DNA of 55,163 nt from an uncultured Clostridia bacterium (GTDB lineage Bacteria; Bacillota; Clostridia; Christensenellales; Borkfalkiaceae), in contig CAMEHL010000001.1 of assembly GCA_945917475.1 (NCBI GenBank), positions 1 to 55,163 on the forward strand, in the 5' to 3' direction. The translations under genes were made by a program, and so were the position numbers. Below are positions 21,675-40,820 of this stretch, piece by piece; positions within the stretch are counted from its first letter, which is position 1, and each line of letters starts with the position of its first letter. A model generated the notes under the pieces. The model worked only from the letters and a program-made list of their open reading frames with translations. It did no database searches and had not been told where the DNA came from.

Positions 21675-21716
21675 CTTTTGACCGCCCCCGCCGTTGAAAT
21701 AAAAACACTTTTTTCC

Positions 21717-22598: not shown

Positions 22599-22600
22599 TT

Positions 22601-23143: not shown

Positions 23144-23167
23144 AAGAGCAAACAACTTGCTCTTTTT
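23142..23167. terminator. Bidirectional terminator between convergent small genes
   Basis: AGAGCAA-acaac-TTGCTCT with flanking A and T runs. Confidence 0.6.
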
Positions 23168-23176
23168 ATTTATATC

Positions 23177-23416
23177 TTATAACTTAAATTTTTCATTCCC
23201 TTTGTCAATTTCAAAAAGTTTTTCATATATTTTATCAAACAATTCTTGCTCGGTAAACGCATCTAAAATATAGGCTCCACCTAAAAAAGACACGTACTTT
23301 AATATATCATGTAATATATCTCTGTTATAATTTCCGCCATCTTCAGTAAACTTTTTTAATGCCTTTAATAAAGCCAACCTGATTGTCTTTGAATTTGCAT
23401 ATCCTCTAAATATCAT
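23177..23416 (-). CDS. Hypothetical protein, possibly the last fragment of a decayed larger gene
   Basis: 79-aa ORF. Immediately upstream in another frame lies ...YPYPILTDPTANYSFNDDYINSFFNMS*, suggesting frame-broken remnants. Confidence 0.35.
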   Translation of the reverse strand: MIFRGYANSKTIRLALLKALKKFTEDGGNYNRDILHDILKYVSFLGGAYILDAFTEQELFDKIYEKLFEIDKGNEKFKL

Positions 23417-23542
23417 TTGAGTTATTATATTAATATCGTTAAAACAAAATCTTGTCAGCTCATATTGAAAAAACTATTGATATAATCGTCATTAAAACTA
23501 TAGTTAGCCGTAGGATCGGTTAAAATAGGATAAGGATATAAT

Positions 23543-23911
23543 TTACTTTTTATATGCATGAATTTTTACCCCCATTGTAGAATATTCTTTATCTTCTATA
23601 ATAAAATCGATTACATTTGTTATCCCATATTGTAATTGAAAAAAACTAATAGTATTTTTTACAACAGTTAAAGAAGAATCAACAGCAGAAACAATATTTA
23701 ATGGCATAGTCTCGTTATTTGTTTCTGATATTTTTTCTATCTCGATATATGCTTTGTCAAATGATTCATTTGGAGTAAATACAACCCGATAGCGATTTTC
23801 TTTTTTATTTATACATATTATTCTTATATTTTTCGCTTTTACAAGTATATCTTTTTCTATAGAATCTGTCCCACCGTCATTTCCTACCGAAGTAGTCTCT
23901 CTTTCTCCCAC
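23543..23911 (-). CDS. Hypothetical protein or gene fragment
   Basis: 122-aa ORF from a GTG. The same frame stays open upstream into the end of the GH gene without any ATG/GTG/TTG, so this may be a 5'-truncated remnant. Confidence 0.35.
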   Translation of the reverse strand: MGERETTSVGNDGGTDSIEKDILVKAKNIRIICINKKENRYRVVFTPNESFDKAYIEIEKISETNNETMPLNIVSAVDSSLTVVKNTISFFQLQYGITNVIDFIIEDKEYSTMGVKIHAYKK

Positions 23912-24045
23912 TCCATGTTTTTTATGCCCTTGATGTTCAATTGCTTCAAATTCTTCACCTTGACCTACAGAACCCTCCGTTTCAGTCGTACTTAGAATAT
24001 CTTCACCTATTTCTTCGGTTTCGGAATTGTACCGATTAAATCGCG

Positions 24046-25374
24046 CTAAAATTTCAATAAAATCGTTTCGTAGGGTTTTAGACTTATAACGCTATCGGCT
24101 TTAACGGGTTGAAAATCTTTTTCTTCGGAAATTATATTCGCCTGCTTTATTTCCTTAATTCCGTTTATTTCGACCGTGTTCGTCTCTTCGCAATTATTCG
24201 TAATAAGTAACGCTCCCGACTTTCCGTTATAAGCGCAAACGGAAAATACGGGTTTTTTATTGTTATCCGAATAAACTTCTTCACCTATCTTGTAAAGTTC
24301 GTTAAACGCCACGAACGAGTAATACGCCTTAAACAACTTTTTCTCTATCGGCAAATCCAAATGCGCGTAAAGAGGGTTGAACAGACCGCAATACACCGAA
24401 TCTATCTTCCCGTCGTAATACATGAGCATATCAAGCGAAGTATCCTGCAATACCAACATATTAGCAAGGATATTAGACGAATCCGCAAGCGTTCCCCTGC
24501 TCATTATCCCGGGATTCCACTCGTTGAGATAGTGTTCCGTTTTCGTATAGCCGAATTTATCGAGAGTTTTCCTGCAAAACTCCGCATACTTGATATTTCT
24601 CTCAACCGCAGAGTAACTGTGCCACGAGAAAAAGTCAAGGGGTGCTTTATGCTTTTCGTCCGAAATATACTTTAAGAAGTTTTCAAAATAATCTATAAAG
24701 TACTGCGTTCTCGAAGAAACCTTCGCCGAAACCTCCGATTTCTCGTTGAAAATCGCATAAAACCCGCAACTCGCATACCCGCCGAATTTAAGCGACGGGA
24801 ATCTTTCTTTTAAGTAACTTGCGGAAACGCGGTATAATTCGTAAAATTGTTCGGGCGTTCCCTTCCACATCTGATTGTCTTCGATTTCCTGAAAATTTTC
24901 CGGTTCGTTCCATATTTCCCAGTATTCGATATTATAGTGAAAGCCGTTTGCCCAACCGTCGTTATAGTGTTTTATAACGTGTTCACAAATTTTCGCCCAC
25001 TTCAAATTGTCTTTCGGCGGATAGATATAATACGGCTTTACGCATTGATAGTTTTCGATAGAAGTGCCGAGCCTGTAAAGGGGTTTTAGATTATACTTTG
25101 CCATTTCGGAAAAAAGCGCGTCCGTCATTGCAAAGTCGTAGGATTTTTCGTCGTTTTCGTCCGCGGTAAAATCGGGAAATATCTTTGGAATATCGACCAT
25201 TTTATCCGCCCCCCTATACACGAAGGTATCGTGCATACGGCATAGCGGCACACCCGCGTCGGATAGTGCCTTATATAAATCGTCGGCATAAAAGGCGGGA
25301 ACGTTGTTTATGCAGTGCATAGGTTTTATTTTGCCTGTTTTTTCGTTTAAGTTTACGTTAACGGAATATTTCAT
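24046..25374 (-). CDS. Clan GH-A TIM-barrel glycoside hydrolase, GH39-like, cytoplasmic
   Basis: The YWEIWNEPEN acid/base motif is typical of GH39/GH5-type enzymes. No signal peptide. 442 aa. Confidence 0.8.
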   Translation of the reverse strand: MKYSVNVNLNEKTGKIKPMHCINNVPAFYADDLYKALSDAGVPLCRMHDTFVYRGADKMVDIPKIFPDFTADENDEKSYDFAMTDALFSEMAKYNLKPLYRLGTSIENYQCVKPYYIYPPKDNLKWAKICEHVIKHYNDGWANGFHYNIEYWEIWNEPENFQEIEDNQMWKGTPEQFYELYRVSASYLKERFPSLKFGGYASCGFYAIFNEKSEVSAKVSSRTQYFIDYFENFLKYISDEKHKAPLDFFSWHSYSAVERNIKYAEFCRKTLDKFGYTKTEHYLNEWNPGIMSRGTLADSSNILANMLVLQDTSLDMLMYYDGKIDSVYCGLFNPLYAHLDLPIEKKLFKAYYSFVAFNELYKIGEEVYSDNNKKPVFSVCAYNGKSGALLITNNCEETNTVEINGIKEIKQANIISEEKDFQPVKADSVISLKPYETILLKF

Positions 25375-25416
25375 TTATTACTCCTTTTATCAATCTTATT
25401 TTTTATCCCGAAAAAT

Positions 25417-27015
25417 TTAAATGATATTGACCGAAACGTTGGTTTTCCAGTCGTTAAAAACGGGTATTTCTCCGCTCTCTTCTTTTCCCGTTTCTATATT
25501 CAGTATCTTTTCCTTTAATTCGGGTATTTCTTTTATATTGCCCTTTAGGTAATCTTTAAGCACTTTTCTCAAATGTTCTACCCGCAGTATCAAACCGCCG
25601 AGTCTTATATCCTGAATTTCAAACCCGAAGGGCTTGTTGTCACCCCCCCACGCGGTCTTAAAATCCGAATAGAATTTCTTTATTTTTTCGATAACGGCGG
25701 AATATTCCTTCACCAAACCTTTCAAGGTTTTCTTGTCCTTTTCCGAATACGCCTTTCTCGTCTTTACTCCGAGTTCGTATTTCACGGATAAAACTTCGCA
25801 AAGCGAAGACAGACAATTAAAAATATACGCGAACTTGCTTTCCCTTGCATACTCGGACAATTTGCGGGCGTATTGCCTATAAATTTCGTTTTCCCCGCCC
25901 TTTACTATATAATCGAATATCCCCGTAAAAAGGTCGTTATAGAGCATTAACTTGGAAGGTCCGTAATTCGTTCTTTTAATATTTATTTCGTTGGGCAAAT
26001 CCAAAGCCATAAACGCGTCGAAAGATTCGCCCGTAATTTCCTTAAACTTCTCTTTATAATCTTTTTCGTTAAAAAGGTCTTTGGCAATTTGCGACGCGAT
26101 AAATAGAGAAGGCAATACCGAAAAAACCGAACATTCCGCACCGTTTCCGCCCCACGCCGTTACCAAAACTTCGTCTATCCCGCATTCCTTTGAAGCTTCT
26201 ATACCCGCCCGTATTTCGTCTACGGAAAACGCGTTGTTGGGTGCAAAACCCCTTGACGTGTAGGCAGAACAAGCATAAACTACTTTTCTATCGAAAATCT
26301 TATGACCGAGAAGTAAATTTTTATAAAACTCCTTATCCGTGTGATAATAGTCCCAGCAAATCAGCCCGAGATTTTCCGGAATTTCCATATCGGACACAAG
26401 TGCGTCTAAAGACGAATAAGATTCGCCGCCTTTTGCCTTGTTAAAATACATATCCGACCACATCATGGGCGAAAAACCGTATTTTACGGCTATTTTATTT
26501 ACTTCGGTCAAGTGCCTTTTAAGCACTTCGAGCCTGTCCGTATACCCGTTTTTGTCGAGATAATACCCCCTTCCCGCAAAATGGGCTTCGTCCATACCGA
26601 TATTTATCCTTCTCGAAGTAAAGCACTCCGACACCGTTTTGAAAATATTATCTATCAGTCGATATGTTCTTTCGTTTCCCACAAGTAAAGTATCCGATAT
26701 ATCGTTTATCTCGGAATATTCCTTCCACCTGAAAATCTGATTTAAGTGAGCCAAGGTCTGAACGCACGGAAGGAGTTCCAAACCCAAAGATACGGCGTAT
26801 CTATCCAAATCCTTTAAATCTTCTTTGGAATATCTGCCCCGCATATATCCGAACATGGGTTCGTTATCGACTTCAAAAACGTCTTCAAAATATAGGGATA
26901 TATAGTCGTATCCCATATCGCGGACGATTTTCATAAAATATTTGATTCTGTCGACACGCATAACTGCGTTTCTCGAGCAATCTATCATAACACCGAGTTT
27001 TTTTACAGAAGACAT
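25417..27015 (-). CDS. GH20-like beta-N-acetylhexosaminidase family protein, cytoplasmic; divergent paralog of 11519..13114
   Basis: GVMIDCSRNAVM, LLPCVQTLAHL, NIGMDEAHFAG. About half of the first ~90 aligned residues are identical to the high-GC copy (hand count 47 of 92). Confidence 0.9.
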   Translation of the reverse strand: MSSVKKLGVMIDCSRNAVMRVDRIKYFMKIVRDMGYDYISLYFEDVFEVDNEPMFGYMRGRYSKEDLKDLDRYAVSLGLELLPCVQTLAHLNQIFRWKEYSEINDISDTLLVGNERTYRLIDNIFKTVSECFTSRRINIGMDEAHFAGRGYYLDKNGYTDRLEVLKRHLTEVNKIAVKYGFSPMMWSDMYFNKAKGGESYSSLDALVSDMEIPENLGLICWDYYHTDKEFYKNLLLGHKIFDRKVVYACSAYTSRGFAPNNAFSVDEIRAGIEASKECGIDEVLVTAWGGNGAECSVFSVLPSLFIASQIAKDLFNEKDYKEKFKEITGESFDAFMALDLPNEINIKRTNYGPSKLMLYNDLFTGIFDYIVKGGENEIYRQYARKLSEYARESKFAYIFNCLSSLCEVLSVKYELGVKTRKAYSEKDKKTLKGLVKEYSAVIEKIKKFYSDFKTAWGGDNKPFGFEIQDIRLGGLILRVEHLRKVLKDYLKGNIKEIPELKEKILNIETGKEESGEIPVFNDWKTNVSVNII

Positions 27016-27050
27016 TTTATTCCCTGCTTTTTTCCATTAAAAATAAGCGT

Positions 27051-27851
27051 TTATAAATCAAGCCCTTCCGCCACGAACTCGGGCAAAACTATTTCGACTT
27101 TTTTGCGGTTCTGTAATAACGTTGCGGGGATTTGCGCCTGCGGTTTATCGCGAAGAACGTGTTTCAATATCCCGTTTTGCCAAATTCTGTTTATCGCTAT
27201 ATATATCTTTCTCGACTGTAAAATTTGTTTCATACCTATCGTAATGCAATATTCGGGCATACCCCTTAAATCGCCTTTCTGATAGCCGAAAGCGTTTATC
27301 GTTCTCGTTTCTCTCGTGATTTTCAAAACTCTCGTTCCGAGATTTCCAAACTCTTCCGCGGTTATCGGGTCGTCTTCTTCCGCCGCCTCGTTAAAGGCGA
27401 TATGACCGTTTATGCCAAGTCCACCCAAGCACAAATCGACTCCGCCTAATTCTTCGATTAAAGCGTCGTATTCCTTTTCCTTACCCGGCTCGGGGAAATT
27501 ACGGTGAGATTCGTCCATAACCAAATCTTTTCTCACTCTCGAATAAAACTCGTCGTTCATTCTCTTGTGAAAACTCATTTTATCGTTAAAATCGAGATAG
27601 GTGTCCGGCGTTACGAGATATTCGTCCATATTAAAGAACCAAACGTTTTTAAGCGAAACGTTCAGATGATTGACCATTTGTGCCAAAATGGGATACTGAT
27701 CGGTAGGCCCTACGGGAACTATCATAACGGTTTTTTTGTTCTCCGCATTGTTCTTTACTATTTCGTCAAGCATCGTAAGTGCCATATCAAAATAGACGTC
27801 CCACTCCGTTTTGACCTTTCTCGTCTTAATTCCGTTTATCGTTTTATCCAT
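27051..27851 (-). CDS. nagB: Glucosamine/galactosamine-6-phosphate deaminase/isomerase (NagB family)
   Basis: FFNMDEY and GGLGINGHIAFNEA match the NagB motifs TFNMDEY and GGVGNDGHIAFNEP. 266 aa. Confidence 0.85.
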   Translation of the reverse strand: MDKTINGIKTRKVKTEWDVYFDMALTMLDEIVKNNAENKKTVMIVPVGPTDQYPILAQMVNHLNVSLKNVWFFNMDEYLVTPDTYLDFNDKMSFHKRMNDEFYSRVRKDLVMDESHRNFPEPGKEKEYDALIEELGGVDLCLGGLGINGHIAFNEAAEEDDPITAEEFGNLGTRVLKITRETRTINAFGYQKGDLRGMPEYCITIGMKQILQSRKIYIAINRIWQNGILKHVLRDKPQAQIPATLLQNRKKVEIVLPEFVAEGLDL

Positions 27852-27862
27852 ACAAAATCTCC

Positions 27863-29029
27863 TTACTTTACTATATTTCCTTTTTTTATAACCGTTTTTA
27901 TATTGAATTTATCGTCGTAAACGCATAAATCCGCAATGCAATTTTTCGCAACCCTTCCCAAGTCCTTTCTCCGTATAACCTTTGCGGGGTTTACCGTTGC
28001 GGTCTTAAACGCGTCGCAAACGGAATATCCGCATTGCATTAAATTCAACACCATTTCCCTTATCGGCGTTATACTTCCCGCATATCTCGTTCCGTCGGCA
28101 AGTACCGCCACGCCGTCGCTGACCTTAAATAACTGTGCGTCGGCATCGTCTTTCGACCCCAAGCGATACAGTCTTCCGTCGTTCGGCATACCCGCACAAC
28201 GCAGAGAGTCGGACACAACGCACACCTTGTCGATACCTTTGAGTTTTATTATCATTTTTGCCAACTCGGAAGTTATGTGCTTTTTATCGAAAATAATTTC
28301 CGCAGTCAACCTGTCGTCGCATAAGCCGTATTCCCGCAGTCCCACGTTCCTTTTCCCGTCCTTGAAACGCACTTCGCTCATAGCGCAATACGCGTGGGTT
28401 AAATGAGATAATCCGTTTTCTATCGCGGGAATAAACTCGGGGAAAATTCCGTCGTCGTGTCCACCGCAGACAACTATACCATTTTCTACCAAATCCTTGG
28501 TCATTATCTCCGCTTTCGGCAATTCCGGCGAAATGGTTACGGTTTTTATAATATCCGAATTTTCCAAAATAAAACCGTAGTCGTCTTTATCCGGACTTAA
28601 CAGATATTCTTCTTTTTGCGCGCCCTTGTTCTTTACGGAAAGATACGGACCTTCAAGGTGAACGCCAACGGGTTCGGCATACTCCGTTTTGCCCGAAGTA
28701 TAAAGCCTATACGATTGCAAAAAATTCTTTATCGATTTAACGGGCGCGGTAACGGTAGTCGCAAGCACGGAAGTAGTCCCGTTTTGCAAATGGAATTTTA
28801 ACGCGTTATCAAAAGACTGTTTTTCGCAATCCATAAAATCCCCGCCGAATCCGCCGTGCGTGTGGATATCTATCAATCCCGCGGACACCAAACTGTTTTG
28901 GGCATCAAAATCTCCCTTCAACCCCTTTTCGGTATTGATGTCCACGATTATTCCGTTATCCGTCACGATATTGCAACTTTGGGAAATCTCTTCTTCTTTA
29001 ATAACCCTGCAATTAGTCAGCGTAAACAT
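27863..29029 (-). CDS. nagA: N-acetylglucosamine (or N-acetylgalactosamine)-6-phosphate deacetylase
   Basis: GLIDIHTHGGFGGDFMD, VHLEGPYLS and HAYCAM are NagA/AgaA amidohydrolase motifs. Confidence 0.9.
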   Translation of the reverse strand: MFTLTNCRVIKEEEISQSCNIVTDNGIIVDINTEKGLKGDFDAQNSLVSAGLIDIHTHGGFGGDFMDCEKQSFDNALKFHLQNGTTSVLATTVTAPVKSIKNFLQSYRLYTSGKTEYAEPVGVHLEGPYLSVKNKGAQKEEYLLSPDKDDYGFILENSDIIKTVTISPELPKAEIMTKDLVENGIVVCGGHDDGIFPEFIPAIENGLSHLTHAYCAMSEVRFKDGKRNVGLREYGLCDDRLTAEIIFDKKHITSELAKMIIKLKGIDKVCVVSDSLRCAGMPNDGRLYRLGSKDDADAQLFKVSDGVAVLADGTRYAGSITPIREMVLNLMQCGYSVCDAFKTATVNPAKVIRRKDLGRVAKNCIADLCVYDDKFNIKTVIKKGNIVK

Positions 29030-29924
29030 TTTTCGCTATAAATTCCTCAACGATTTTTTCGTTTAACTCAAAATTTCTTACACCCAAATTCATACATTTA
29101 TACGCCGATACGGCACTCGCGTATTTGCAACTCTCGGCAACTCCCTTTCCGTTTAGATAGTAATGCAAAAACGCGCCGTGAAAGGTATCTCCCGCGCCGT
29201 TGGTGTCTACGGCACCTACCTTAAAGCCGTGATATTTTTCTATCCTGCTCTCTTCGGTCAAACAATAACCGCCGTTTGAACCGTCTGTTACGACAATCAC
29301 CTTGCAGTTATATTTTAACTTAAAATATCCGATTGCGTCAATAATATTCTCTTTTCCCGAAAATTTAAGTGCAAATTCGGCGGAAGGAATCAAAAAATCA
29401 ACTAACGGGAGCAACTTTTCTATCCCTTCGTATAAACCGCCCGCGTCTAAACTCACAGAAACTTTTTTCGACCTTGCGTATTCCGCACCGTAAATCGCGC
29501 ACTGCATAAAATTGCCGTCGAGATGTAAAACGTCAGCGGTGTCGATAGCCTTTAAGTTTACCCCCGAAACGGAATCGGGAACGTTGCCCCTGTCGTATAT
29601 ACAAGTTCTGGTTTTCGAGTCTTTCGCTAAAATAATATACGACCTGAAAGCGTCCGTTCCTTTTACTATTTTGACGTTTTCTGTTTTGACCCCGTATTTT
29701 TCATAGTCGGAAAGTAAAATCCGACCGTCCCCGTCAGACGCGAAATTGCCTATGATTTCCGCTCCCGTTCCGAGTTTGCTTAAAACAACGAGAGCGTTGC
29801 CGACGGGTCCCCCGCCGACAAGGTTTATGCCTTCCGCACCGACTTTTTTATCTTCAACGGGATATTTACCGCATGAAATCAAAGTGTCTAATACGCTTGC
29901 CCCGATTCCTACGACCTTTTTCAT
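29013..29924 (-). CDS. PfkB-family sugar(-phosphate) kinase (tagatose-6-P kinase / IolC / KdgK-like)
   Basis: DTNGAGDTFHGAF PfkB signature. Start MKKVVGIGAS at 29924 forms an ATGA overlap with the aldolase stop. Confidence 0.85.
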   Translation of the reverse strand: MKKVVGIGASVLDTLISCGKYPVEDKKVGAEGINLVGGGPVGNALVVLSKLGTGAEIIGNFASDGDGRILLSDYEKYGVKTENVKIVKGTDAFRSYIILAKDSKTRTCIYDRGNVPDSVSGVNLKAIDTADVLHLDGNFMQCAIYGAEYARSKKVSVSLDAGGLYEGIEKLLPLVDFLIPSAEFALKFSGKENIIDAIGYFKLKYNCKVIVVTDGSNGGYCLTEESRIEKYHGFKVGAVDTNGAGDTFHGAFLHYYLNGKGVAESCKYASAVSAYKCMNLGVRNFELNEKIVEEFIAKNVYAD

Positions 29925-30748
29925 ACTCTGTTTTCCGAACCTAATAATTTTATCTTGGAAATGCAAAACTGTTTAACCGATTCGATGGGTTTTGCCATTA
30001 TCAAATCTATACCGACCTTGTTTTTGTCTTCTTCCATTAAGGGATCGAGAAAGGCATAGCATAAATCCGTTCCGAAATTTACCTTTCTTATTCCCGCTTC
30101 AATCGCTTGTTTTATCTGTGCGTCGGGGACTCCGCTTCCGCCGTGGAGTACGAGCGGAATTTTAACCTCTTCTTTTATTTCCCTTATTCTCTCGATTGCG
30201 AGTTTCGGGGCTTGTTTATATCTCCCGTGAGCAGTGCCGACGGCAACCGCAAGGCAGGCTACCCCCGTTCCGTCTACGAACTTTTTCGCATCGGCAACGG
30301 TAGTGTAATCCGTGGGAACGCCGTCGCAAGCCTTTCCGATAAAACCGAGTTCCCCTTCTACGCCGATATTTGCGCCGTCTAATAATGTAACGACCTTTCT
30401 CGTGTTCTCGATATTTTCTTCAAGCGGAAGTTTGGAAAAGTCCACCATAATTCCCGTTGCGCCGTTTTTTAACGCTATCGTAGCGGGGATAAATCCCGCG
30501 CCGTGGTCCAAATGTAAGCAAACGGGAATTTTCGTCTTTAACGCAACGTCTGTAACGATGGGCGAAATAAAATCCCCGAATCCCGTAGACGCAAGTCTTG
30601 AATAATATTGCATAATTACGGGAGAACCCGCTTCTTCGCACGCCTTGATAACTCCCATAACCGTTTCCATATTATAAACGTTAAACGCGGGAACGGCATA
30701 TCCCTTTTCGTCGGCATCTCTTAAAATCTCTCTTAAATCTACTAACAT
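29921..30748 (-). CDS. Class II (FBA_II family) ketose-bisphosphate aldolase (tagatose-bisphosphate aldolase / IolJ-like)
   Basis: GYAVPAFNVYNMETV, LHLDHG, LVLHGGSG. Confidence 0.9.
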   Translation of the reverse strand: MLVDLREILRDADEKGYAVPAFNVYNMETVMGVIKACEEAGSPVIMQYYSRLASTGFGDFISPIVTDVALKTKIPVCLHLDHGAGFIPATIALKNGATGIMVDFSKLPLEENIENTRKVVTLLDGANIGVEGELGFIGKACDGVPTDYTTVADAKKFVDGTGVACLAVAVGTAHGRYKQAPKLAIERIREIKEEVKIPLVLHGGSGVPDAQIKQAIEAGIRKVNFGTDLCYAFLDPLMEEDKNKVGIDLIMAKPIESVKQFCISKIKLLGSENRV

Positions 30749-30759
30749 ATTTTTCTCCT

Positions 30760-31911
30760 TTATAAAGTACAGAGTATTCCGTAATCGGAATACCCGAATA
30801 TTTTTGCATCTTTATCTTTATTTATCGCGATAACCGTCGTTGAATTTTCAATTCCGACGATATGCTGAATTTCTCCGCTTATTCCGAAAGCGACGTAGAC
30901 TGCGGGAGAAATAATTTTTCCCGTTAAACCGACCTGTTTTTCATAGTCGATTAAACCTTCGTCTACAACCTTTCTTGACGCAACGATTTCCGCGCCGTAT
31001 TTCTTTGCAAGTTTTTCTATATCTTCTATCCTGTCTTTTGCCCCGTATCCTATGCCGAAAACCACTTTGCCGACAGAGTCTTCCTTTTCCCTTACGGTTG
31101 CCATAGCGAATTTTCCTTCGATACTTATCTCGGCAATAACGTTTTCGCAATTAGCGGGCCTTAAAAACCGAAGTTCGTTTAAGTCTCTTTTTATGCCTAT
31201 ACAATCGGCACAAAGCCCGCAATCGAGTTCGACGGCTATTCTCGGTGCTATCGCCCTGTTTTGCAATCCCGCCGAAAACAAAATATATTTTATTCCCGCG
31301 TCCTTTATCCTTATTGCCGTTTCCCTAACAGTCGTAAAAGGTATTCTCACAACTTCTTCGGCAACTTCGTCGGCAATTTTCAAGCCTTCTCCCACGACGA
31401 CGACCCTATCGATTTTGCCGTCGCTAAAGGACGATAATTTTTCTTCCGCTTCCTTTTTTTCGGATAGCGACTTCTTTATAATCCCGTCTAAATCGTCATA
31501 TCCGATAAATTTGCATTTCCTTTCTTTTTTGCTCTTTTCTAAAACGCTTATAACCTTCGTAAACGAACCTTTTATAACGCATTTACTTTCATCTAAACGC
31601 AATTTTTCGTTAGTCCAGATTTCGACTTCCTTCTTCTTTGAAAAAATGTTCGCAAATCTCAACTGTTTTATTCCGTCCAAACTGATAAGGGCGGGTGTGG
31701 TCAAGTCAAAATCCCCGAATCTCGTTTTCGCTTTATCAAAAGAAAAATCCAGCGTATACGGATAGAAATTATAGCCGAGTATAGTGGATATTTGCGCGGG
31801 AACTTGCGCCGTATCCCCGTTTATACTCTGCCTTCCGCATAGAATTATATCCGGCTTGATTTTTTCTATCGCGGAAGATAAAATCTTTGCCGTTACAAGC
31901 GTGTCGCTCCC
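30760..31911 (-). CDS. EtfB C-terminal part fused in frame to an EtfA-like (FAD-binding) domain
   Basis: The track ORF (TTG at 31704) is open upstream to 31911: GSDTLVTAKILSSAIEKIKPDIILCGRQSINGDTAQVPAQISTILGY... (EtfB-like). This runs with no stop into ...PAVYVAFGISGEIQHIVGIENSTTVIAINKDKDAKIF (EtfA FAD domain). Confidence 0.75.
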   Translation of the reverse strand, partial: GSDTLVTAKILSSAIEKIKPDIILCGRQSINGDTAQVPAQISTILGYNFYPYTLDFSFDKAKTRFGDFDLTTPALISLDGIKQLRFANIFSKKKEVEIWTNEKLRLDESKCVIKGSFTKVISVLEKSKKERKCKFIGYDDLDGIIKKSLSEKKEAEEKLSSFSDGKIDRVVVVGEGLKIADEVAEEVVRIPFTTVRETAIRIKDAGIKYILFSAGLQNRAIAPRIAVELDCGLCADCIGIKRDLNELRFLRPANCENVIAEISIEGKFAMATVREKEDSVGKVVFGIGYGAKDRIEDIEKLAKKYGAEIVASRKVVDEGLIDYEKQVGLTGKIISPAVYVAFGISGEIQHIVGIENSTTVIAINKDKDAKIFGYSDYGILCTL

Positions 31912-32114
31912 TTATAGCAATCGTCCGATATAAGTATTGCCCGAACGTTTCCGAGTCTTGTGAAATATTCTAAATTTTCCTTTATTTCCTTTGGACCCAT
32001 GCTTATAAGGAAAATTTCGGCGTTTTCGACACCTAACGCCATTTCGATACACGTTTTATCGAAAGGACTTATTTCCCCCTTATAGAACTTTATCGCGACC
32101 GCAACTTTAAGCAT
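31893..32114 (-). CDS. EtfB N-terminal fragment, out of frame with the continuation
   Basis: MLKVAVAIKFYKGEISPFDK...VRAILISDDCYKG then ATRL*. The expected continuation SDTL... is in the -1 frame. The shift site is the C3 run at 31909-31911. Confidence 0.7.
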   Translation of the reverse strand: MLKVAVAIKFYKGEISPFDKTCIEMALGVENAEIFLISMGPKEIKENLEYFTRLGNVRAILISDDCYKGATRL

Positions 32115-33564
32115 TATATATTTCCTCTAATGCCTTTTGTATCTTTTTATATCTCTCGAATATCTTTTCGTATTTTTCTGTATTTTCGCAATTCGGAGTC
32201 GTTTCGGAAACTATTTCGGAACATGTTTTTATTGCGTCCGAATAGTCTTTAAATATTCCGCTCGCAATACCCGCGCACATCGCCGAACCGAAAGAACTGT
32301 CGTTGTTTTCCGTCGTAACGAGTTTGATATTCAACGCGTCGGAAACGATTTGTCTCCACTCTTTACTCGTCGAACCACCGCCGATAGCAAAAGCCGTTTG
32401 CATTTTCACGCCGTTCTTTATTAGGTGCTTTTTGCAGTCGATTAAAGACATCGCCACGCCTTCCATAATCGCCCTTGCGAAATGCCCTTTCGTGCAAGTT
32501 CCCGAAATTCCCACGAAACTACCCCGCAGTTTGGGATTGCCGTAAGGCGTTAATTCGCCGTTTAAGTAGGGGTGATAAATAAGCCCGTCGCACCCAATGG
32601 GAACTTTACGGACCAACTCGTCGAATTCCGAATAATTTCCGCCGAAAGTATCTCTGAACCAATGCAAAGACGACGCGCACGCTTTCGTTGCCGTCCCCGG
32701 ATAAAAAAGCCCGTCTATCAAGTGCGAATAGTTGATTATGTGTTTATCTGCAACGGTTTTATCGTCGACAACGCAAATTCTTCCCGCGGTGGCGAGTTTG
32801 ATAGTCGTTTGCCCTTTTTCTATCGCGCCGGCGGCAAAAACTTCCATCGCGGTATCCGTAGAACCGCAAATCACCTTGGTATTATACGATAAACCGAGTT
32901 TATCCGCAATCTCTTTTTTTACGTTTCCTACTATCGTCAGCGGGGAAACGATTTTCGGAAGACAGTCTTCGTTTATTCCGAGAATATCTAAATATCTTTT
33001 TTCCCACTTGTATTCGTCGAAGGGAAAAAACATAGAGCCTTCCGCTTCTATTTTGTCCGTAACGAAATCGTCGGAAAAACTGTGGCGGACGAAATCCTTT
33101 GCGAAGGTTATTTTTTTAACCCTTGCCCATATATCGGGTTCGTTCTCTTTTATCCACAGCAATTCCGGAAGCGTCCATATTGTATCTACGGTGTGCTTGA
33201 ATTTTTTGAAAATATCATCGCTGAAATCTCTCTTTAATCTTTTCACCTGTTCGATACTTCTCGTATCCGTCCAGTAAACCGAGTTCCTTACAGTGTTGAA
33301 ATTTTCGTCCATTAACACCGCCGTATGCGTTGCGGCATCAAAACAAATGCACTTAATATCTTCCTTGTTTATGCCCTGTATTAAATTTTTTATATTTTTA
33401 CACGAAGTGTAAACCCAGTCGTTCGGGTCTTGTTCGACCTTACCGCCGTCGCCGTAAATCGTTTTATATTCGCTTTTGGATTTGGCTATAACCTTGCCTT
33501 CGCCGGATAACAGCGTGGCTTTACTCGACCCACCGCCGAAATCAACGCCTATAACGTATTCCAT
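32107..33564 (-). CDS. FGGY-family carbohydrate kinase (xylulokinase-like)
   Basis: VIGVDFGGGSSKATL, ...YWTDTRS..., ...GSTDTAMEVFAAG..., ...AIGGGSTSKEWRQIVSDAL.... 485 aa. Confidence 0.9.
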   Translation of the reverse strand: MEYVIGVDFGGGSSKATLLSGEGKVIAKSKSEYKTIYGDGGKVEQDPNDWVYTSCKNIKNLIQGINKEDIKCICFDAATHTAVLMDENFNTVRNSVYWTDTRSIEQVKRLKRDFSDDIFKKFKHTVDTIWTLPELLWIKENEPDIWARVKKITFAKDFVRHSFSDDFVTDKIEAEGSMFFPFDEYKWEKRYLDILGINEDCLPKIVSPLTIVGNVKKEIADKLGLSYNTKVICGSTDTAMEVFAAGAIEKGQTTIKLATAGRICVVDDKTVADKHIINYSHLIDGLFYPGTATKACASSLHWFRDTFGGNYSEFDELVRKVPIGCDGLIYHPYLNGELTPYGNPKLRGSFVGISGTCTKGHFARAIMEGVAMSLIDCKKHLIKNGVKMQTAFAIGGGSTSKEWRQIVSDALNIKLVTTENNDSSFGSAMCAGIASGIFKDYSDAIKTCSEIVSETTPNCENTEKYEKIFERYKKIQKALEEIYNA

Positions 33565-33567
33565 AAC

Positions 33568-34359
33568 TTACTTATTCATCCACATATGGTCTTCGTCCGT
33601 CGTGCTGAAAAGTCCCCTGTTTTTACCCGCCATAATCCACAAGCAGTAATTTTTGTAGTTCGGAGCAACGGAGAAGGGGTGATAGCCCTTGGGAATTTCC
33701 ACGAAATCGCCGTTTTCGACCTTATACGCCTCGTTTATGCTTCCGTCTTTAGTATATACCATCTGAACTCCGAAACCCTGCGGTTTGTCGAATTCATAGT
33801 AGTATATTTCGTCAAGCGCGCCTTCGACGGGAAGATTGTCTATATCGTGCTTGTGCGGGGGATAACTGCCCCACTTGCCGTCTTCCACCCAAAATTCACC
33901 TATATACAAATGGTTTGCATTGACCGTTTCGGGGAAGGTGAACGCAACTTCACGGATACAAGCACCTTTTCCGAAAGTCTTTACGACGACATCTTCCGCT
34001 TTGATACGGAAGGGTTCGTAATATTTTTCCGCGGGGGCTTTCGCAACGCAGATTTTAACGTCGCCGTTAAGTCCCGTAACCGTGAAAGGCTTATTCCTTC
34101 CTATATATACGGATTCCGCCGCCCCGTCAAACACGGTTTTACGGCTTCCCACACAGTCGAACTTAAAACCTTCGCCACTAACAGAACATTTCCCGTATAG
34201 AACTATCAACACGAATTCCTTATTCTCTTCGTCGATAGTGTAACTTTGCCCGTCGGCAAGTTTAAGGATATCCGCTTCGGCATAAATTAAAGGACTGTTC
34301 CTGTCTGTAACAATCCTTTCATAGCCGTATTTTTCCGCATAACTCTTTTTTAAATTCAT
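33568..34359 (-). CDS. iolB: 5-deoxy-glucuronate isomerase (KduI/IolB family, IolB-like)
   Basis: GKWGSYPPHKHDIDNLPVEGALDEIYYYEF...GFGVQMVYT...IPKGYHP...LWIMAG closely parallels B. subtilis IolB as I recall it (GNWSSYPPHKHDQDNLPEE...ETYYHEL...GFVFQRVYT...VPAGYHP...LNVMAG). Confidence 0.85.
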   Translation of the reverse strand: MNLKKSYAEKYGYERIVTDRNSPLIYAEADILKLADGQSYTIDEENKEFVLIVLYGKCSVSGEGFKFDCVGSRKTVFDGAAESVYIGRNKPFTVTGLNGDVKICVAKAPAEKYYEPFRIKAEDVVVKTFGKGACIREVAFTFPETVNANHLYIGEFWVEDGKWGSYPPHKHDIDNLPVEGALDEIYYYEFDKPQGFGVQMVYTKDGSINEAYKVENGDFVEIPKGYHPFSVAPNYKNYCLWIMAGKNRGLFSTTDEDHMWMNK

Positions 34360-34369
34360 AATACAACTC

Positions 34370-35452
34370 CTATTTTATATTTTCCGAAATCATTTCTTCG
34401 ACGGAAAGCACCCTGTATCCGTCCGGACAATTTTCCTTTAACAGTTCGTATTCCGCGGGATTTTCCGTAACAAGGGTTTTGCAATCCATATTTTTTGCGT
34501 TTTCCCACCTGTTTGCGGCGACCTTGCTTTGAACTTCCTTCATATATTCGTTCATAATCAAATGTCCCGCAAGATTCGTCTCCTTGCCATTCAAAAGCAT
34601 TTCTTTATTTACGCCGACTCTGTCTACGAGTTTTCTTACCGTTTCGCTGTCGTCTAATTCTCTCGAATAAGCATAGTTGTCTTGCACGGTGTATGCCTTA
34701 TCCGACTTTACGACGTTTAGTTTTCCGCTGTCTATAAGGTCGATAAGAAAGGCGTTAAAACCGATTATTTCGGCTTTGACGGTAACGCCCCACTCCGCCC
34801 ACTCTCTTTTTATGAATTTCAAGTCGACGGGGTCGTATACGACGACCTTTTCGTATCCGTTAATAATTTCGGCACTTTGCTCTGCACTTTGCTTGGTGTC
34901 TGCGGTTTTTCCCACCAAGAACCATAACGCCGAACCCGTTGAATTGCTCTTTTCGTTCAAAGTGAAATTCACGCCTGCCTTTTTTAACAATTCGCAGGCG
35001 TTCTTAACACTGTTTGCACTTTTATACAAAGCGTCTTGGCCGACTAAAAATAAAATGTTCGACTCTCTGTCGAAATATTTTTTCAAACTTTCGTCATACG
35101 GTATTCCGTATACGTTACCCGTTTGTTGATACTTGGTCAATAAATCCTTAATATACGGCGGAATAACCCCGTTTAAAACAGCGTCCGCCTTAACTTCCTG
35201 AATAAATATTTTCGGGTCCCAACCCGTTATACAGTTATTCGTACAAGCACCGCAAAGGGAACACTCATATATATTGTCGATAATATCGTCGATTTTTTCC
35301 GCACCGCGAACAACTACCGACGCACATAAAGCCCTTGCTCTTGCCGTATTCCTTTCCTGTCCCGTTGCGTTGCCGATAGGACAAATATGTCTACACATTC
35401 AACAAAATCTGCACGAATCGATTTGTTGCTTTGCTTTTTCGGAAATATTCAT
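34370..35452 (-). CDS. GlcF/GlpC-like (Fe-S)-binding subunit with CCG-type C-terminal region; carries an in-frame TGA at 35401-35399
   Basis: AAGGAG RBS 9 nt before ATG 35452. MNISEKAKQQIDSCRFC-TGA-MCRHICPIG completes CxxCxxCxxxCP only if the TGA is read through. The second cluster is CSLCGACTNNC. The track ORF starts at the Met just after the TGA. Confidence 0.75.
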
Positions 35453-35465
35453 TTTGCCACACTCC

Positions 35466-36890
35466 TTATAAACCTAATTTAAACGGATTCATTATTCCGT
35501 TCGGGTCGAGAGATTTCTTTATCCCTTCAAATACTTGCATCGCAGGTCCGTATTGTTCCTTCATAAGCCTTCCGAGTTTTATCCCTACCCCGTGGTGATC
35601 GTTTACGACACCGCCGTTCGCTATCGCTTCTCTCACGCCTACAGTCCAGATCTTGTTGTGCAATTTCATCGCTTCGACGGGGTCTTCGGGTACGTATTCT
35701 TTATCTACGATAAACCTGTCGTAAACCATACAACCCCACTCGTACCAGTGAGAGAAGTGCGCTATGAATTTAACGTGCGGGAAAGTGCTTTCAATCTTGT
35801 TTTTCATTGCCCAGTAAATCTTTTCTATTTTATCGTAGGGCGCAATGGTATCCATAGTGCCGAACATTTGCGGTAAATCCATCATATGCCCGGGATAGAA
35901 AAAGGTAATTTTTTCCTTCCACCACTTTTCACCGTATTCACTGCCCAAGTCTTCCGCACCGTATTTGGAAAAAGTATCGAGTAAAATCTTTTCTTCAACG
36001 TCCACTAATTCCTTAACGCCTTCGTAAGCGACGTTCATAAACGCGCCGGGTTTTTCCACGCCGACGATTTTCTTTATCAAACTTGCCGTTTCGGCATTGT
36101 CGTATAATCTCATAACAGAAGGCTTGAATTTTTGGAGAATTTCTCTCGATGCCTTAAACGCAGACGACATATCCTTAAACAAAAATCCCCTGAATCTTCT
36201 CACTTCCGGCTGTTCGTATATTCTGATTTGCGCCTTCGTTATAACCCCGAGCGTTCCTTCAGAACCTATAAAAATTTGATTTAGGTCGGGACCTGCGGCA
36301 TGCTTCGGCGCGTTTGAAGTGTTAATTATATCGCCGTTTGGCAAAACGACTTCCATAGACAAAACCATATCGTCTATTTTGCCGTATTTAGTAGAAACAA
36401 CGCCTATTCCCCTGTGTGCCAAAAAACCGCCGACGGTAGAACAGGTAAGCGAAGACGGATAGTGCATAGTCGCGTATCCCTTTTCGTTTGCCGCCCACTC
36501 GACGTGCTTATAGATAGCACCCGTTCCGCACTCTATATACATAGAATCTGTATTGACTTCGTAGATTTTATTCATACGTTTGGTATCTAGAATTATACCG
36601 CCCGCAACGGGAAGCGCACCGCCTTGCGTGCCACCGCCCCCGCCCCAGGTCGTTACGGGGATTTTATAGTAATTCGCAATCTTTAACACCTTCGACGTTT
36701 CTTCCGCGTCTTTCGGCGAAACAATATAGTCCGCTTCGGGCATTCTCCTACCCCTGTCCGCCCACATACGTGAAAGCCAAAAATAATCTACGCTGTGCGT
36801 GAGTTTATCTATTTCCTTCACCGAGCAATTTTCTTCTCCTACCGCGTCTTCCAACTCGGTTATAATTTGTGTCTGTAAAAATTCGTTCAT
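35466..36890 (-). CDS. FAD-binding oxidoreductase (GlcD / D-lactate dehydrogenase / alkyl-DHAP-synthase-like, FAD_binding_4 + FAD-oxidase_C)
   Basis: ...PVTTWGGGGGTQGGALP..., ...GPDLNQIFIGSEGTLGVITKAQIRI..., ...VMRLYDNAET..., ...HHGVGIKL.... 474 aa. Confidence 0.9.
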   Translation of the reverse strand: MNEFLQTQIITELEDAVGEENCSVKEIDKLTHSVDYFWLSRMWADRGRRMPEADYIVSPKDAEETSKVLKIANYYKIPVTTWGGGGGTQGGALPVAGGIILDTKRMNKIYEVNTDSMYIECGTGAIYKHVEWAANEKGYATMHYPSSLTCSTVGGFLAHRGIGVVSTKYGKIDDMVLSMEVVLPNGDIINTSNAPKHAAGPDLNQIFIGSEGTLGVITKAQIRIYEQPEVRRFRGFLFKDMSSAFKASREILQKFKPSVMRLYDNAETASLIKKIVGVEKPGAFMNVAYEGVKELVDVEEKILLDTFSKYGAEDLGSEYGEKWWKEKITFFYPGHMMDLPQMFGTMDTIAPYDKIEKIYWAMKNKIESTFPHVKFIAHFSHWYEWGCMVYDRFIVDKEYVPEDPVEAMKLHNKIWTVGVREAIANGGVVNDHHGVGIKLGRLMKEQYGPAMQVFEGIKKSLDPNGIMNPFKLGL

Positions 36891-36944
36891 TTTATACCTC
36901 TGAAATATCCTTTATGTTCGTTTCTTTTGACCCTTTTTCCGTTA

Positions 36945-36972
36945 ATGATATAAAAACGTCTACTTTTTGCAA
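36945..36972 (-). promoter_or_regulatory. Candidate internal promoter ahead of the catabolic block
   Basis: On the minus strand: TTGCAA (36972-36967), 16-nt spacer, TATCAT (36950-36945), in the only sizeable intergenic gap (132 nt) of the gene train. Confidence 0.3.
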
Positions 36973-37022
36973 TAGTCTATTTTATCAAAAGCGCACGTTG
37001 TGATTATAAACCGTTTGTTCTT

Positions 37023-38897
37023 TTACTTAAAAAAAAGATTGAAATAATAGACGGGAAGTGCCGACCAACCGTGACAAAGGCTTCCCGCACCCAAAAAGTC
37101 TTCCGCGCCTTTAATCGTTTCCCAACAAGTCGTTGCGCCTTTATCAATCATGTATTGATACTTTTCGGTTATATCCTTCAAAACGTATTCTTTATATCCC
37201 GAATTGCATTTTAACATTGCGTCGTAAACAAAACCTATCATGGGAAGTGATACCTTAACGTCGCATAAAGATCCCGCTATATCTTCGACAACCTTTTTGT
37301 CGCAATCTATTCCCGAAAGATACACAAGCCCGTTTCCGAGTTCGGAGTTCAGCGAAGTATTTTCGTTTAACACGTATCTACCGTTTTTATTAAACCGTTC
37401 CCTGACTTTCGATGAAAAATTTTCGTAGTCGAAGGAAAATTCAATCTTCCTTATTCCGCAAAGTTTTTCATAATATCTCATTGCAAGAACGAAAAACGAA
37501 TTTAATAACAGGCTGTATTCCGTTTTATATCCGTCGTTGTTTTTTCTGCCTATTTCCGTTTCGTTGTTAGACTCTTCCGTCCACTCGAAAAAATTCCAGT
37601 ACGGATACGGGAAATTCGGAATCAACCCGTTTTTATCTATCCGATTAAGATATTCTCCGATTATTCTCGTTAAAACTTCAAACACTTCGTCTAAAACGGT
37701 TTTGTCGCCGGTATGTTCAATATACTCGTAAACGCAAATTATAAAACATAGCGAGAACAACGGAATTGTCATTTTTTTTGAAGTGTGCGCCGTGATGGAA
37801 AGCAAATCGTCATCTCTTATCGACTTTGAAATAGTAACGATATTCGCACGTTGATAATCGTTATTGTCAAAGGTATAATATCCGCAAAGCATTTGATTTC
37901 TGCTGTCCATAACGTACATGGATTGCTCCCGCCACGGATTGTCTTCGTAATGGTCGTGTGCGCAGAGTTTCAACGCGTTAAGACAAATATCGTATATGTT
38001 TTTATATTTTGCGGGCAAGTTCGGAAGGGGATTATTCTTAAACGGATACGAAACTTCTCTTATGCCGACGTATCCATTATAAATCGGATATTCGCTCTCG
38101 ACCTTTAAGTATCTCAAACCGAGTCGCAAAAACATGTTTTTATAAACGTTACGACCTTTTTTTGCCCTGTATTCAAAACTGAAATCCCTGATAGCAACGT
38201 GCCTTTGAACGTCGCTTTCTTTATTCAAATGTTCGGAATACGAAAAAGTAATCACCTGCACTTTGTCGGAATAAAAATCCAACTCGATATAGCCGACTTT
38301 TTCATCTCTCAAATCAAATATGGAAAATGGTAAATCCTTTTTATGTAATTTTCCCAAAACGAGTTTCTCAACGGGTCTATAAGCCACGCACTTCTCTTTT
38401 GTAACGACTTTCGACTTTCCGTATTCCGTTTCGGCTTTCGTAGAATCGAATAAATAACTCAAACCTATTTGAGGAGTTATCCACTTTCCGTATCCGTTTT
38501 TATAGTAAGGGTTTATTCTCGACAGAGTATCTTCTCCCGACTTTGAAATCACAACGCCGTCTTCGAGTACAGAATAAATAAATCCCGGATTCGAGAGAAA
38601 ATTATTCGACGAAGCAACGCCCTGATACCATACGGTTACTTTAAGGATATTTTCCCCGTTTTTGCAAAAACGGGTAATATCCTTTCTTTCCGCTATTTTG
38701 TAATGTGGCAAATCGGGATATTGACCGAAGTCTATCATATCCCCGTTTAGTTCGGCAACGTAGTTCCCGTCGCAAGATAAAACCATTTCGGTTTTCTTGC
38801 CGTTAAAACGGAAGGGAATATAGAAATCCGCATAACTATCGGAATCGTTTTTGTCAACCCAAATCCACTGTGAATATTGTAAATCTAACAAGTCCAT
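37023..38897 (-). CDS. GH78-like alpha-L-rhamnosidase-type six-hairpin glycosidase, cytoplasmic
   Basis: N-terminal SQWIWVDKN...ADFYIPFRF...VLSCDGNYVAELNG (rhamnosidase N-domain pattern). C-terminal TTCWETIKG...GSLCHGWSALPVYY. Confidence 0.75.
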   Translation of the reverse strand: MDLLDLQYSQWIWVDKNDSDSYADFYIPFRFNGKKTEMVLSCDGNYVAELNGDMIDFGQYPDLPHYKIAERKDITRFCKNGENILKVTVWYQGVASSNNFLSNPGFIYSVLEDGVVISKSGEDTLSRINPYYKNGYGKWITPQIGLSYLFDSTKAETEYGKSKVVTKEKCVAYRPVEKLVLGKLHKKDLPFSIFDLRDEKVGYIELDFYSDKVQVITFSYSEHLNKESDVQRHVAIRDFSFEYRAKKGRNVYKNMFLRLGLRYLKVESEYPIYNGYVGIREVSYPFKNNPLPNLPAKYKNIYDICLNALKLCAHDHYEDNPWREQSMYVMDSRNQMLCGYYTFDNNDYQRANIVTISKSIRDDDLLSITAHTSKKMTIPLFSLCFIICVYEYIEHTGDKTVLDEVFEVLTRIIGEYLNRIDKNGLIPNFPYPYWNFFEWTEESNNETEIGRKNNDGYKTEYSLLLNSFFVLAMRYYEKLCGIRKIEFSFDYENFSSKVRERFNKNGRYVLNENTSLNSELGNGLVYLSGIDCDKKVVEDIAGSLCDVKVSLPMIGFVYDAMLKCNSGYKEYVLKDITEKYQYMIDKGATTCWETIKGAEDFLGAGSLCHGWSALPVYYFNLFFK

Positions 38898-38909
38898 ATT
38901 TCTCCACGG

Positions 38910-40820
38910 TTATTGATTTTCCCATAATTCGTCAAAACTATCCGATATTTCGGTTTCCTCAAAAATGTATTTTAACGCACTGTTGTTTTTATATCTTCTG
39001 ATTAAATAATCTTGTTCGTCCACCTTAAAGAAGTCGAACATTTCTTGCACGGTTTTAAAAGGCGTGCTTGTTATAACTTCTTTTTTATCGATGTATTGAA
39101 GTTGCTTTTGAACCAAATCAATCGAATCGGAGCAAACTATATACAAGCCGTCCGCTTCGGCAAACATCGAATCCATCATAAAGCAAAGCCCCGCGGTCTG
39201 CCCGTGTTCGTTATAAGTCGTCCTGTAATTTATAACCACGTTTTGAACGGATACGCCCTGCGATAATCTGTAAGCCAAAACGCCTTCTATACAACTTGAA
39301 CCCGAAAACGCGTCTATGCAAAGATTTATAAGTTTGGTGTTCGTTAAGGTGTGTGCGATAATTCCGCGAACGTATTCCTTTGCGTCCTGTCCCGATCCGA
39401 ATCTTGCCGTCATCTCTACGTTATATAAAGATAAATTCTGAACGACCGCACCGTTACAGGAGTAGAAAATACCGCCCGTCATTTGCCCGAGTTTCATGTT
39501 CGTAATCTTATGTCCGTTTCCGTCGAGTATTCCGCTGAAAACGTTTTGATTGCCACGCGTAAGCAAGCCGAAGTCTTCTATATCGGTTGCGAGAACTATC
39601 GTTTCATCCGTTGCGACGGAAAGGATTTTTTCAAAACTGCTTGCATCAAAGCATACGAAGTCAACCACTTTAACGCTGATTAAATAGCCGTAATCGCTGT
39701 TGCAAACCTTCCACACGAAATCCCCTTTCGCAAGGTTATTAACCCCGAGAGAACCTTCGTTGTAAAACAAATCCACGTCCGCACCGCTTACTATCGCGCT
39801 GACAGTTTTTATTTCTTTACCGTCGAAAATGTCGTAGTTGAACGAAAGGTTGTCTTTCCCTATCTTCTTCGCTTCTACTTTTTGACTGTCTTTCCAGTTA
39901 TCAACGTAATATATATCGCTATTCCTTTCGTCGCTTACGGGAAATGCTATTTTTACGTTTACGTTACAACTGTAAGTCGAGTCTTCAAAATCGTAACAAA
40001 CGTTTACCGTCGTATATTCGTCAACCGTTTTTCCGTTTGTGTTTAACGCGGTAAAGGTGTGTCCGCTTCTCGACAATAACGTTTCGTCAAATTCAAAATA
40101 AGTCTCCGCACCAACAACCAAATCGTCGCCATTATAAACGGAAATACCGCTTATATCAAAGGAAGTCTTTCCGCCAAGTACGTCGCTTTTTTCTATGGAG
40201 AAATCGTATTCGTCAACCGTAACGGTGATATTCTCAACAACCCTTACGGTTACCACCTTGGTTATTTCCTTATTAAAGAAAACATTTTTGATGATTATGC
40301 CCGCTTCCCCGGGTTTTATTGCGGTTACCTTGCCGTTGCCGTCTACGCTTATGCAATCGCTGTCCGTTTCAAAGGTAAACACGGCGTTTTCAACGAGTTT
40401 TGAAAAGTAGAGTTTGGGAACGACCACGAATTCGTCGTTTACGTATAAGTTGAACTCGTCTACGTTGGTTGCGATATACGGTTTTACTTCGTTTTCCACA
40501 ACCGTTACTTGACAACTCGAAGTTAATTCTCCGCATTTTGCAACGATGGTAGTCGACCCGACCGACAATCCAAAGACGTATCCCTTATCGTCTACCGTAA
40601 CGATTTGTTCGTTCTCCGAAGTGAAGGAAACGTTTTCGTAATTCGTCGACATGAGATTAAATCCTTCGTATTGACACAAAGTATAGGAATTGTAATTTAA
40701 TTTCAGGTTTTCTTTTTTCGGATCTACGGGATTATTTCCGTTGCAGTTACAACCGCCGAAAATTACCGCCATACAAGCGAAAAACAGTACAGTTAAAACC
40801 GTTTTAAAAGTTTTTCTCAT
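38910..40820 (-). CDS. Surface lipoprotein with Big_2 Ig-like domains and a parallel beta-helix (GLUG-like) region
   Basis: Start MRKTFKTVLTVLFFACMAVIFGGC (lipobox). VTVDDKGYVFGLSVGSTTIVAKCGELTSSCQVTVV is Big_2-like. FSGILDGNGHKITNMKL...VVQNLSLYNVEM is a beta-helix repeat pattern. Confidence 0.8.
   Translation of the reverse strand: MRKTFKTVLTVLFFACMAVIFGGCNCNGNNPVDPKKENLKLNYNSYTLCQYEGFNLMSTNYENVSFTSENEQIVTVDDKGYVFGLSVGSTTIVAKCGELTSSCQVTVVENEVKPYIATNVDEFNLYVNDEFVVVPKLYFSKLVENAVFTFETDSDCISVDGNGKVTAIKPGEAGIIIKNVFFNKEITKVVTVRVVENITVTVDEYDFSIEKSDVLGGKTSFDISGISVYNGDDLVVGAETYFEFDETLLSRSGHTFTALNTNGKTVDEYTTVNVCYDFEDSTYSCNVNVKIAFPVSDERNSDIYYVDNWKDSQKVEAKKIGKDNLSFNYDIFDGKEIKTVSAIVSGADVDLFYNEGSLGVNNLAKGDFVWKVCNSDYGYLISVKVVDFVCFDASSFEKILSVATDETIVLATDIEDFGLLTRGNQNVFSGILDGNGHKITNMKLGQMTGGIFYSCNGAVVQNLSLYNVEMTARFGSGQDAKEYVRGIIAHTLTNTKLINLCIDAFSGSSCIEGVLAYRLSQGVSVQNVVINYRTTYNEHGQTAGLCFMMDSMFAEADGLYIVCSDSIDLVQKQLQYIDKKEVITSTPFKTVQEMFDFFKVDEQDYLIRRYKNNSALKYIFEETEISDSFDELWENQ

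Follow-up and report, generated by a model that had tools for sequence, protein, structure and literature searches.

The locus lies in an operon on the minus strand (29013-36890) of the window, the whole 55,163-nucleotide stretch analysed here. The first gene of this operon encodes a GlcD-like FAD-linked oxidase/dehydrogenase, and a gene for an Fe-S protein is translationally adjacent to it. The reading frame of the latter is interrupted by an in-frame TGA at codon 18 (Table 1). The AAGGAG of the Fe-S gene overlaps the TAA stop of the FAD-oxidase gene directly upstream when the minus strand is read, and a comparison of loci showed that it is kept in conspecific as well as in more distant ones. 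Two cysteines of the first motif (CxxCxxCxxxCP), Cys14 and Cys17, are encoded in the 17 codons ahead of the TGA, and the peptide encoded there is identical to the N-terminal stretch of P0121, an intact conspecific protein. After the TGA, the same frame continues with ATG-TGT-AGA-CAT-ATT-TGT-CCT (MCRHICP) to the end of the ORF at 34370. The remainder of the dicluster domain lies in this second part, together with a C-terminal region that is EtfD/HdrB/LutA-like but has no CCG cysteines. The initial annotation had described an AAGGAG, an ATG at 35452, 17 codons, a TGA at 35401-35399 and an in-frame MCRHICPIG, and a reading of the minus strand located all of them as claimed. The same reading confirmed that read-through restores C-R-F-C-x-M-C-R-H-I-C-P and that the second motif is CSLCGAC.

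Table 1 Features of the interrupted Fe-S gene and its operon neighbours (window coordinates)
Feature	Position	Strand	Remarks
GlcD-like FAD-linked oxidase/dehydrogenase gene, 474 aa	35466..36890	-	FAD_binding_4 and FAD-oxidase_C; first operon gene, intact
AAGGAG ribosome-binding site	35462..35467	-	9-nt spacer to ATG 35452-35450; sequence reading
First 17 codons of the Fe-S protein gene (MNISEKAKQQIDSCRFC)	35402..35452	-	sequence reading
In-frame TGA, codon 18 of the Fe-S protein gene	35399..35401	-	sequence; orthologue and conspecific comparison
Imperfect 8-bp hairpin UUUGUCCU-n14-GGGACAGG	35356..35385	-	13 nt after the TGA; in the MFE fold
Remaining 342 codons of the Fe-S gene (P0001)	34370..35398	-	ORF from the ATG abutting the TGA (UGAAUG)
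Fused ETF beta-alpha gene, split into 73-aa and 314-aa ORFs	30760..32114	-	tblastn frame switch at ~31907

Gene content of the operon

The gene order around the Fe-S gene is conserved in relatives. Their operon comprises a divergent RpiR-type regulator followed by the GlcD-like FAD oxidase (474 aa), the Fe-S protein (359-361 aa), a KduI/IolB-like isomerase (263-266 aa), an FGGY kinase (485-487 aa) and a fused ETF beta-alpha protein (453-456 aa). In one type of relative, represented by L008, a class II aldolase (275 aa) and then a PfkB kinase (about 292 aa) come after ETF, and in the other, represented by L005, ETF leads directly to PfkB without an aldolase. The window operon is of the L008 type, with the class II aldolase gene between those for ETF and PfkB. 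The conserved operon is found widely among Christensenellales-like gut Clostridia, with further occurrences in MAGs of Bacilli and Planctomycetota.

Elsewhere in the window, a long minus-strand array of glycoside-hydrolase and transporter genes is interrupted by two islands (3700-6200 and 21700-24000) in which short ORFs occur on mixed strands; these include an XRE-type HTH gene (5325-5531) and a 180-aa ORF (22601-23143). These islands may be remnants of mobile elements or phages.

Identity of the Fe-S protein

A Pfam search of the Fe-S protein returned Fer4_8 alone, in the N-terminal dicluster domain (E 1.7e-06; 28.9 bits, cut-off 27). The conserved motifs CRFCWMCRHxCP and CSLCGACTNNC identify this part as an N-terminal 2x[4Fe-4S] ferredoxin-like domain. 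No Pfam match to the CCG domain (PF02754) was found in the protein. NCBIfam yielded weak matches to TmcB, LutB, HdrC and TfrB, and a sequence search against the PDB retrieved ferredoxin-like segments only.

An AlphaFold2 model of the orthologue P0002 was obtained from an alignment of 25 sequences (mean pLDDT 89.4, pTM 0.89). Its best match in the PDB was EtfD of Mycobacterium smegmatis (9ojn; E 1.6e-12, TMq 0.71), followed by LutA (1.8e-06) and HdrB (about 4e-04). The C-terminal 240 aa (residues about 120-360), which carry no Pfam domain, were confidently modelled as an HdrB/LutA/EtfD-like double Rossmann-type fold. Across the alignment of 25 sequences, C324 alone among the C-terminal cysteines was conserved; the fold is retained, and the non-cubane cluster ligands that CCG domains carry have been lost from it. 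On the predicted model, the Fe-S protein has the HdrD/EtfD architecture minus the CCG cysteines. The fold and the gene neighbourhood together suggest that it is likely the Fe-S partner in electron exchange with ETF and the GlcD-like flavoenzyme.

Codon 18 in orthologues

The read-through protein was used as the query in a homology search that returned more than 2,000 homologues, the best 120 of which were examined. Full-length proteins (357-361 aa, 60-70% identity) accounted for 118 of them, and the sequence CRFC-W-MCRH[IVL]CP was present in every one of these orthologues (118/118). The two short entries were the window's own product and P0033, a protein of 343 aa starting with MCRH. The latter was considered as a second independent TGA case and ruled out, since the DNA that encodes it (L001) has an intact TGG and is missing the region of the start codon. 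The FGGY gene of L001 is also split, besides the missing start-codon region of the Fe-S gene (150-200), and both are defects of the assembly type.

At the DNA level, scanning a single genome for each GTDB species provided 80 more loci, which were pooled with metagenomic loci. One of the pattern seeds for the locus scan included the W and five were without it. The 80 loci belonged to Candidatus Scatosoma, Christensenellaceae, other Clostridia, Bacilli and Planctomycetota MAGs. In each of the 90 additional loci whose DNA spans the codon, Trp18 was encoded by TGG, and neither Cys, Gly, Sec nor TGA occurred at this position among the 118 orthologous proteins and the 90 covering loci. The initial annotation had proposed Gly as the ancestral residue by analogy with CSLCGAC, and had asked whether Gly, Cys or Sec (TGA) occupies the column. 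The column contains none of these; it is an invariant Trp, and the TGG codons of the orthologues rule out an origin of the TGA from GGA.

Downstream hairpin and selenocysteine

Selenocysteine insertion at UGA-18, directed by the downstream hairpin in the role of a bacterial SECIS, had been put forward as an alternative to a nonsense mutation. A selenoprotein family of GlpC-type Fe-S oxidoreductases does exist in Deltaproteobacteria (Zhang et al. 2006, PMC1794560), as the initial annotation had correctly stated, and in the window an 8-bp hairpin begins 13 nt past the UGA. Both the sequence and the MFE fold contain this hairpin at 35385-35356. Its region folds at -12.3 kcal/mol, compared with a mean of -11.6 +/- 2.4 for shuffled sequences (z = -0.29), and 73 of 200 shuffles folded as well or better. 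This folding energy is ordinary, and the hairpin is not a SECIS. The hairpin overlies the codons for the conserved ICPIGNATGQ and is base-for-base the same in TGG-bearing strains, including conspecific ones. A bacterial SECIS would be a stable and conserved stem-loop specific to the Sec form; the present one is shared with strains that have no Sec codon at this site, and no Rfam SECIS model had a match in 35200-35500, even in a permissive search at E <= 10. The 55-kb window yielded no tRNA gene, tRNA-Sec included, and no Rfam family of any kind, and the window genes examined did not include any sel gene.

The orthologue column also speaks against selenocysteine. Most selenoprotein families are described in general as having widespread Cys-containing homologues (PMC1794560), and a Sec codon is expected to align with Cys or Sec in homologues. 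Here the UGA aligns with Trp in all of the proteins and with TGG in all of the covering loci, and codon 18 is neither a cluster ligand nor a redox Cys. A Sec site is effectively refuted by this Trp column, with which the unremarkable hairpin and the absence of SECIS and tRNA-Sec matches from the window agree, and we regard it as having next to no chance of being correct.

TGA as a stop codon in the window

The invariant Trp directs attention to another form of recoding, namely a genome-wide reassignment of UGA to Trp (code 4) or Gly (code 25), given that Trp is exactly what code 4 would insert. The 34 long ORFs of the window end in TAA (21), TGA (10) and TAG (3), and their 15,662 codons comprise 155 TGG codons and a single in-frame TGA. 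When TGA was taken as a sense codon, only unrelated neighbours were merged. The stretch 8318-14086 on the minus strand is a case of this kind, where genes for an ABC permease, a GH20-like enzyme and a large signal-peptide surface protein share a frame, with TGA stops and short spacers between them. This arrangement was considered as a sign of reassignment and rejected; the three genes are distinct, the ABC permease and GH20-like genes end in TGA where separate genes start, and the shared frame is a coincidence.

As TGA ends 10 of 34 ORFs and 155 TGG codons stand against one in-frame TGA, codes 4 and 25 are excluded, and TGA is a normal stop in the standard code here. The TGG at codon 18 in conspecific contigs argues against reassignment as well, and this reading can hardly be credited at all. 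A survey of UGA stop-to-Trp reassignment lists Mycoplasmatales and particular lineages of Patescibacteriota and Pseudomonadota (PMC13092985), and a term search of it turned up neither Clostridia nor Christensenellales.

Conspecific contigs and the diagnostic base

The 90% cluster of the window protein includes P0121, an intact member of 360 aa with W18. Contigs from different samples that carry either P0121 or the identical aldolase were chosen as conspecific references. Codon 18 is TGG in L002, L003, L004 and L011, which come from four samples and share 99.1-99.5% nucleotide identity with the window. Over the 21 bases from 35390 to 35410, position 35399 is the sole difference between the window and the conspecific contigs; on the plus strand it is T in the window and C in the relatives, which corresponds to A and G in the mRNA. 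The locus therefore shows what is expected of a nonsense-mutation pseudogene: close relatives, the four conspecific contigs, keep the sense codon TGG intact, and a minimal mutation of one base separates the window from them.

These results refine the earlier proposal of a fresh single-base nonsense change. The kind of event was rightly named, whereas its detail has to be changed from GGA to TGA at the first codon base to TGG to TGA at the third. The diagnostic base had accordingly been placed wrongly at 35401; given the TGG ancestry and the conspecific contigs, it is 35399.

A comparison with the conspecific contigs over 17 kb (23428-40451) revealed one nonsense change (35399), one indel (in the ETF gene) and no others. 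The operon substitutions private to the window consist of 18 nonsynonymous and 13 synonymous changes, and intact flanking genes show a similar ratio. The dN/dS of window-private changes was considered as a sign of relaxed selection and set aside, because the changes are too few and the intact neighbours have a similar ratio; nor do these substitutions help to tell a genuine allele from a consensus error.

A second lesion in the fused ETF gene

The indel is a 1-nt deletion at about 31907 (GGGAAGC to GGGAGC), which lies 3.5 kb downstream of the TGA in the same operon and splits the fused ETF gene. The gene is intact in the conspecific contigs L011, L012 and L093, where it encodes 451 aa and contains one extra A (GGGAAGC or GGAAAGC instead of GGGAGC). 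An independent ENA contig of 581 bp (L095) encodes the 73-aa product with the same deletion and differs from the window by one mismatch. This recurrence marks the ETF frameshift as a real allele in circulation, as opposed to a random error. A programmed frameshift was ruled out for this site on reading the sequence, because no slippery heptamer is present at UAUAAGGGAGC and the conspecific contigs simply have one A more.

Split genes were also found on L007, where a run of N at 4184-4209 splits the FGGY gene and the PfkB gene is split too. Recurrent decay of the operon is not supported by these splits, as that of the FGGY gene is an artefact of a scaffold N-gap.

The EtfD-like fold of the Fe-S protein and the presence of an ETF gene in the operon make it probable that the two disrupted genes encode partners within a single redox module. 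The redox genes make up about 3.9 kb of the 17 kb compared, and the chance that both lesions would fall within them is roughly p = 0.05, which is only modestly improbable.

Variant or consensus error

Because all orthologues and conspecific contigs have TGG and this assembly alone has TGA, the TGA is an ordinary nonsense mutation in kind and not a selenocysteine or other recoding site. The allele was seen on the window contig alone, and every conspecific contig has TGG. This distribution would also be produced by a sequencing, assembly or consensus artefact, in which the true codon of the organism is TGG and the A either is erroneous or comes from a minority variant that became the MAG consensus. 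Defects in other metagenomic contigs of the operon, such as the N-gap in the FGGY gene of L007 and the missing start region of L001, lend some weight to it. Against it, the exact 342-aa truncated product (P0001) is on record from NCBI, ENA and Logan sources, which suggests that more than one read assembly gives TGA. The ETF lesion is reproduced on an independent contig of a different haplotype, so the lineage does carry real disabling alleles, and the 17 kb compared contain no further indels or nonsense changes, as would be expected of a consensus that is not generally error-ridden. Look-ups of the exact products of P0001, IolB and the 289-aa protein gave no entries. An artefact at 35399 keeps a fair though lesser probability, and the TGA is more probably a true biological variant.

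The reading that we prefer, with a probability of roughly 0.6, is that the TGA arose by a recent TGG-to-TGA nonsense mutation at the invariant Trp18 of an EtfD/HdrD-like Fe-S protein, is private to this strain or assembly and contributes to the decay of a redox module. In that event, RF2 would stop translation from the ATG at 35452 after a peptide of 17 residues. Some reinitiation may occur at the AUG that abuts the stop (UGAAUG), which would yield the 342-aa form. Without Cys14 and Cys17, both of which are ligands to the first [4Fe-4S] cluster, this product could not assemble that cluster and would very probably be inactive. The most economical order of events would be that the ETF gene was lost first and that neutral decay of the partner Fe-S gene followed; the ETF loss is placed first because the ETF deletion occurs on two haplotypes. 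The strain appears to have lost a conserved redox module, consisting of the GlcD-like flavoenzyme, the EtfD-like Fe-S protein and the fused ETF, from an operon for the catabolism of sugar derivatives.

Possible leaky read-through

A nonsense allele may still be read at a low level. In leaky read-through, UGA-18 would be decoded as Trp by the near-cognate tRNA-Trp(CCA) or by a strain-specific suppressor, and the allele would be a hypomorph instead of a null. TGG to TGA is the sole nonsense change at which near-cognate misreading restores the native residue, and the ribosome-binding site and the 17 upstream codons are intact. Low-efficiency decoding of UGA as Trp was reportedly described in Bacillus subtilis by Lovett and colleagues in 1991 (J Bacteriol 173:1810, as cited in PMC2704378). 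Basal read-through would yield at most a few percent of the normal amount of protein. Neither folding nor the Rfam search found a stimulating element, TGA stops 10 of the 34 ORFs, and the allele is present in no relative. The partner ETF gene is moreover frameshifted and the pathway would be inoperative anyway, so a low level of native Fe-S protein made by misreading would be of no consequence. Read-through of this kind is considered very unlikely. A more elaborate version, in which the TGA allele is kept as a leaky and regulated hypomorph with possible help from the UGA-A context or the downstream hairpin, is more doubtful still. If it were true, it would be a natural instance of a gut Clostridium tuning the level of a redox enzyme by stop-codon read-through. 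The TGA involves no recoding signal, and recoding in all its forms together is left with a slim chance at best.

The outcome is mainly a negative one. A UGA within a Cys-rich Fe-S motif mimics a selenoprotein, and one alignment column together with conspecific contigs suffices to expose it as a nonsense change. For the annotation of the MAG, the Fe-S gene should be recorded as a pseudogene or disrupted gene, and the same applies to the fused ETF gene at 30760-32114.

Comparison with known systems

The Fe-S protein resembles EtfD (9ojn) and the HdrD/GlpC/GlcF/LutA/HdrB group in its N-terminal two-[4Fe-4S] domain with CxxCxxCxxxCP and CxxCxxCxxxC motifs, in the two Rossmann-like domains of HdrB/LutA (CCG-domain) fold that the predicted model contains, and in an operon shared with an ETF gene and a GlcD-like flavoenzyme. 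It differs from EtfD in having no CCG Pfam match and no membrane domain, its C-terminal 240 aa lack conserved cysteines of the CCG or CxxC type, and the identity between the two is only 18%. The likeness to the GlpC-type selenoproteins of Deltaproteobacteria is one of broad class, that of Fe-S oxidoreductases with a dicluster domain; in contrast to them, the protein described here has an invariant Trp in the column and no SECIS, and belongs to a lineage of Christensenellales-like gut Clostridia.

A UGA at a conserved Trp position is reminiscent of code 4, as used by Mycoplasmatales and some symbionts, and of the low-level UGA-to-Trp read-through in B. subtilis and E. coli. Unlike those decoding systems, the window has one such site in ~15,700 codons, TGA otherwise works as a stop, and the conspecific contigs are without it. 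The closest likeness is to a nonsense-mutation pseudogene or strain-specific loss allele, with a single-base stop in one strain and a second lesion in a linked gene of the operon. The locus is an ordinary disrupted gene in a decaying operon, and compared with other nonsense pseudogenes nothing is unusual; the only curiosity is the combination of the UGAAUG with a TGG origin, by which misreading restores the native residue.
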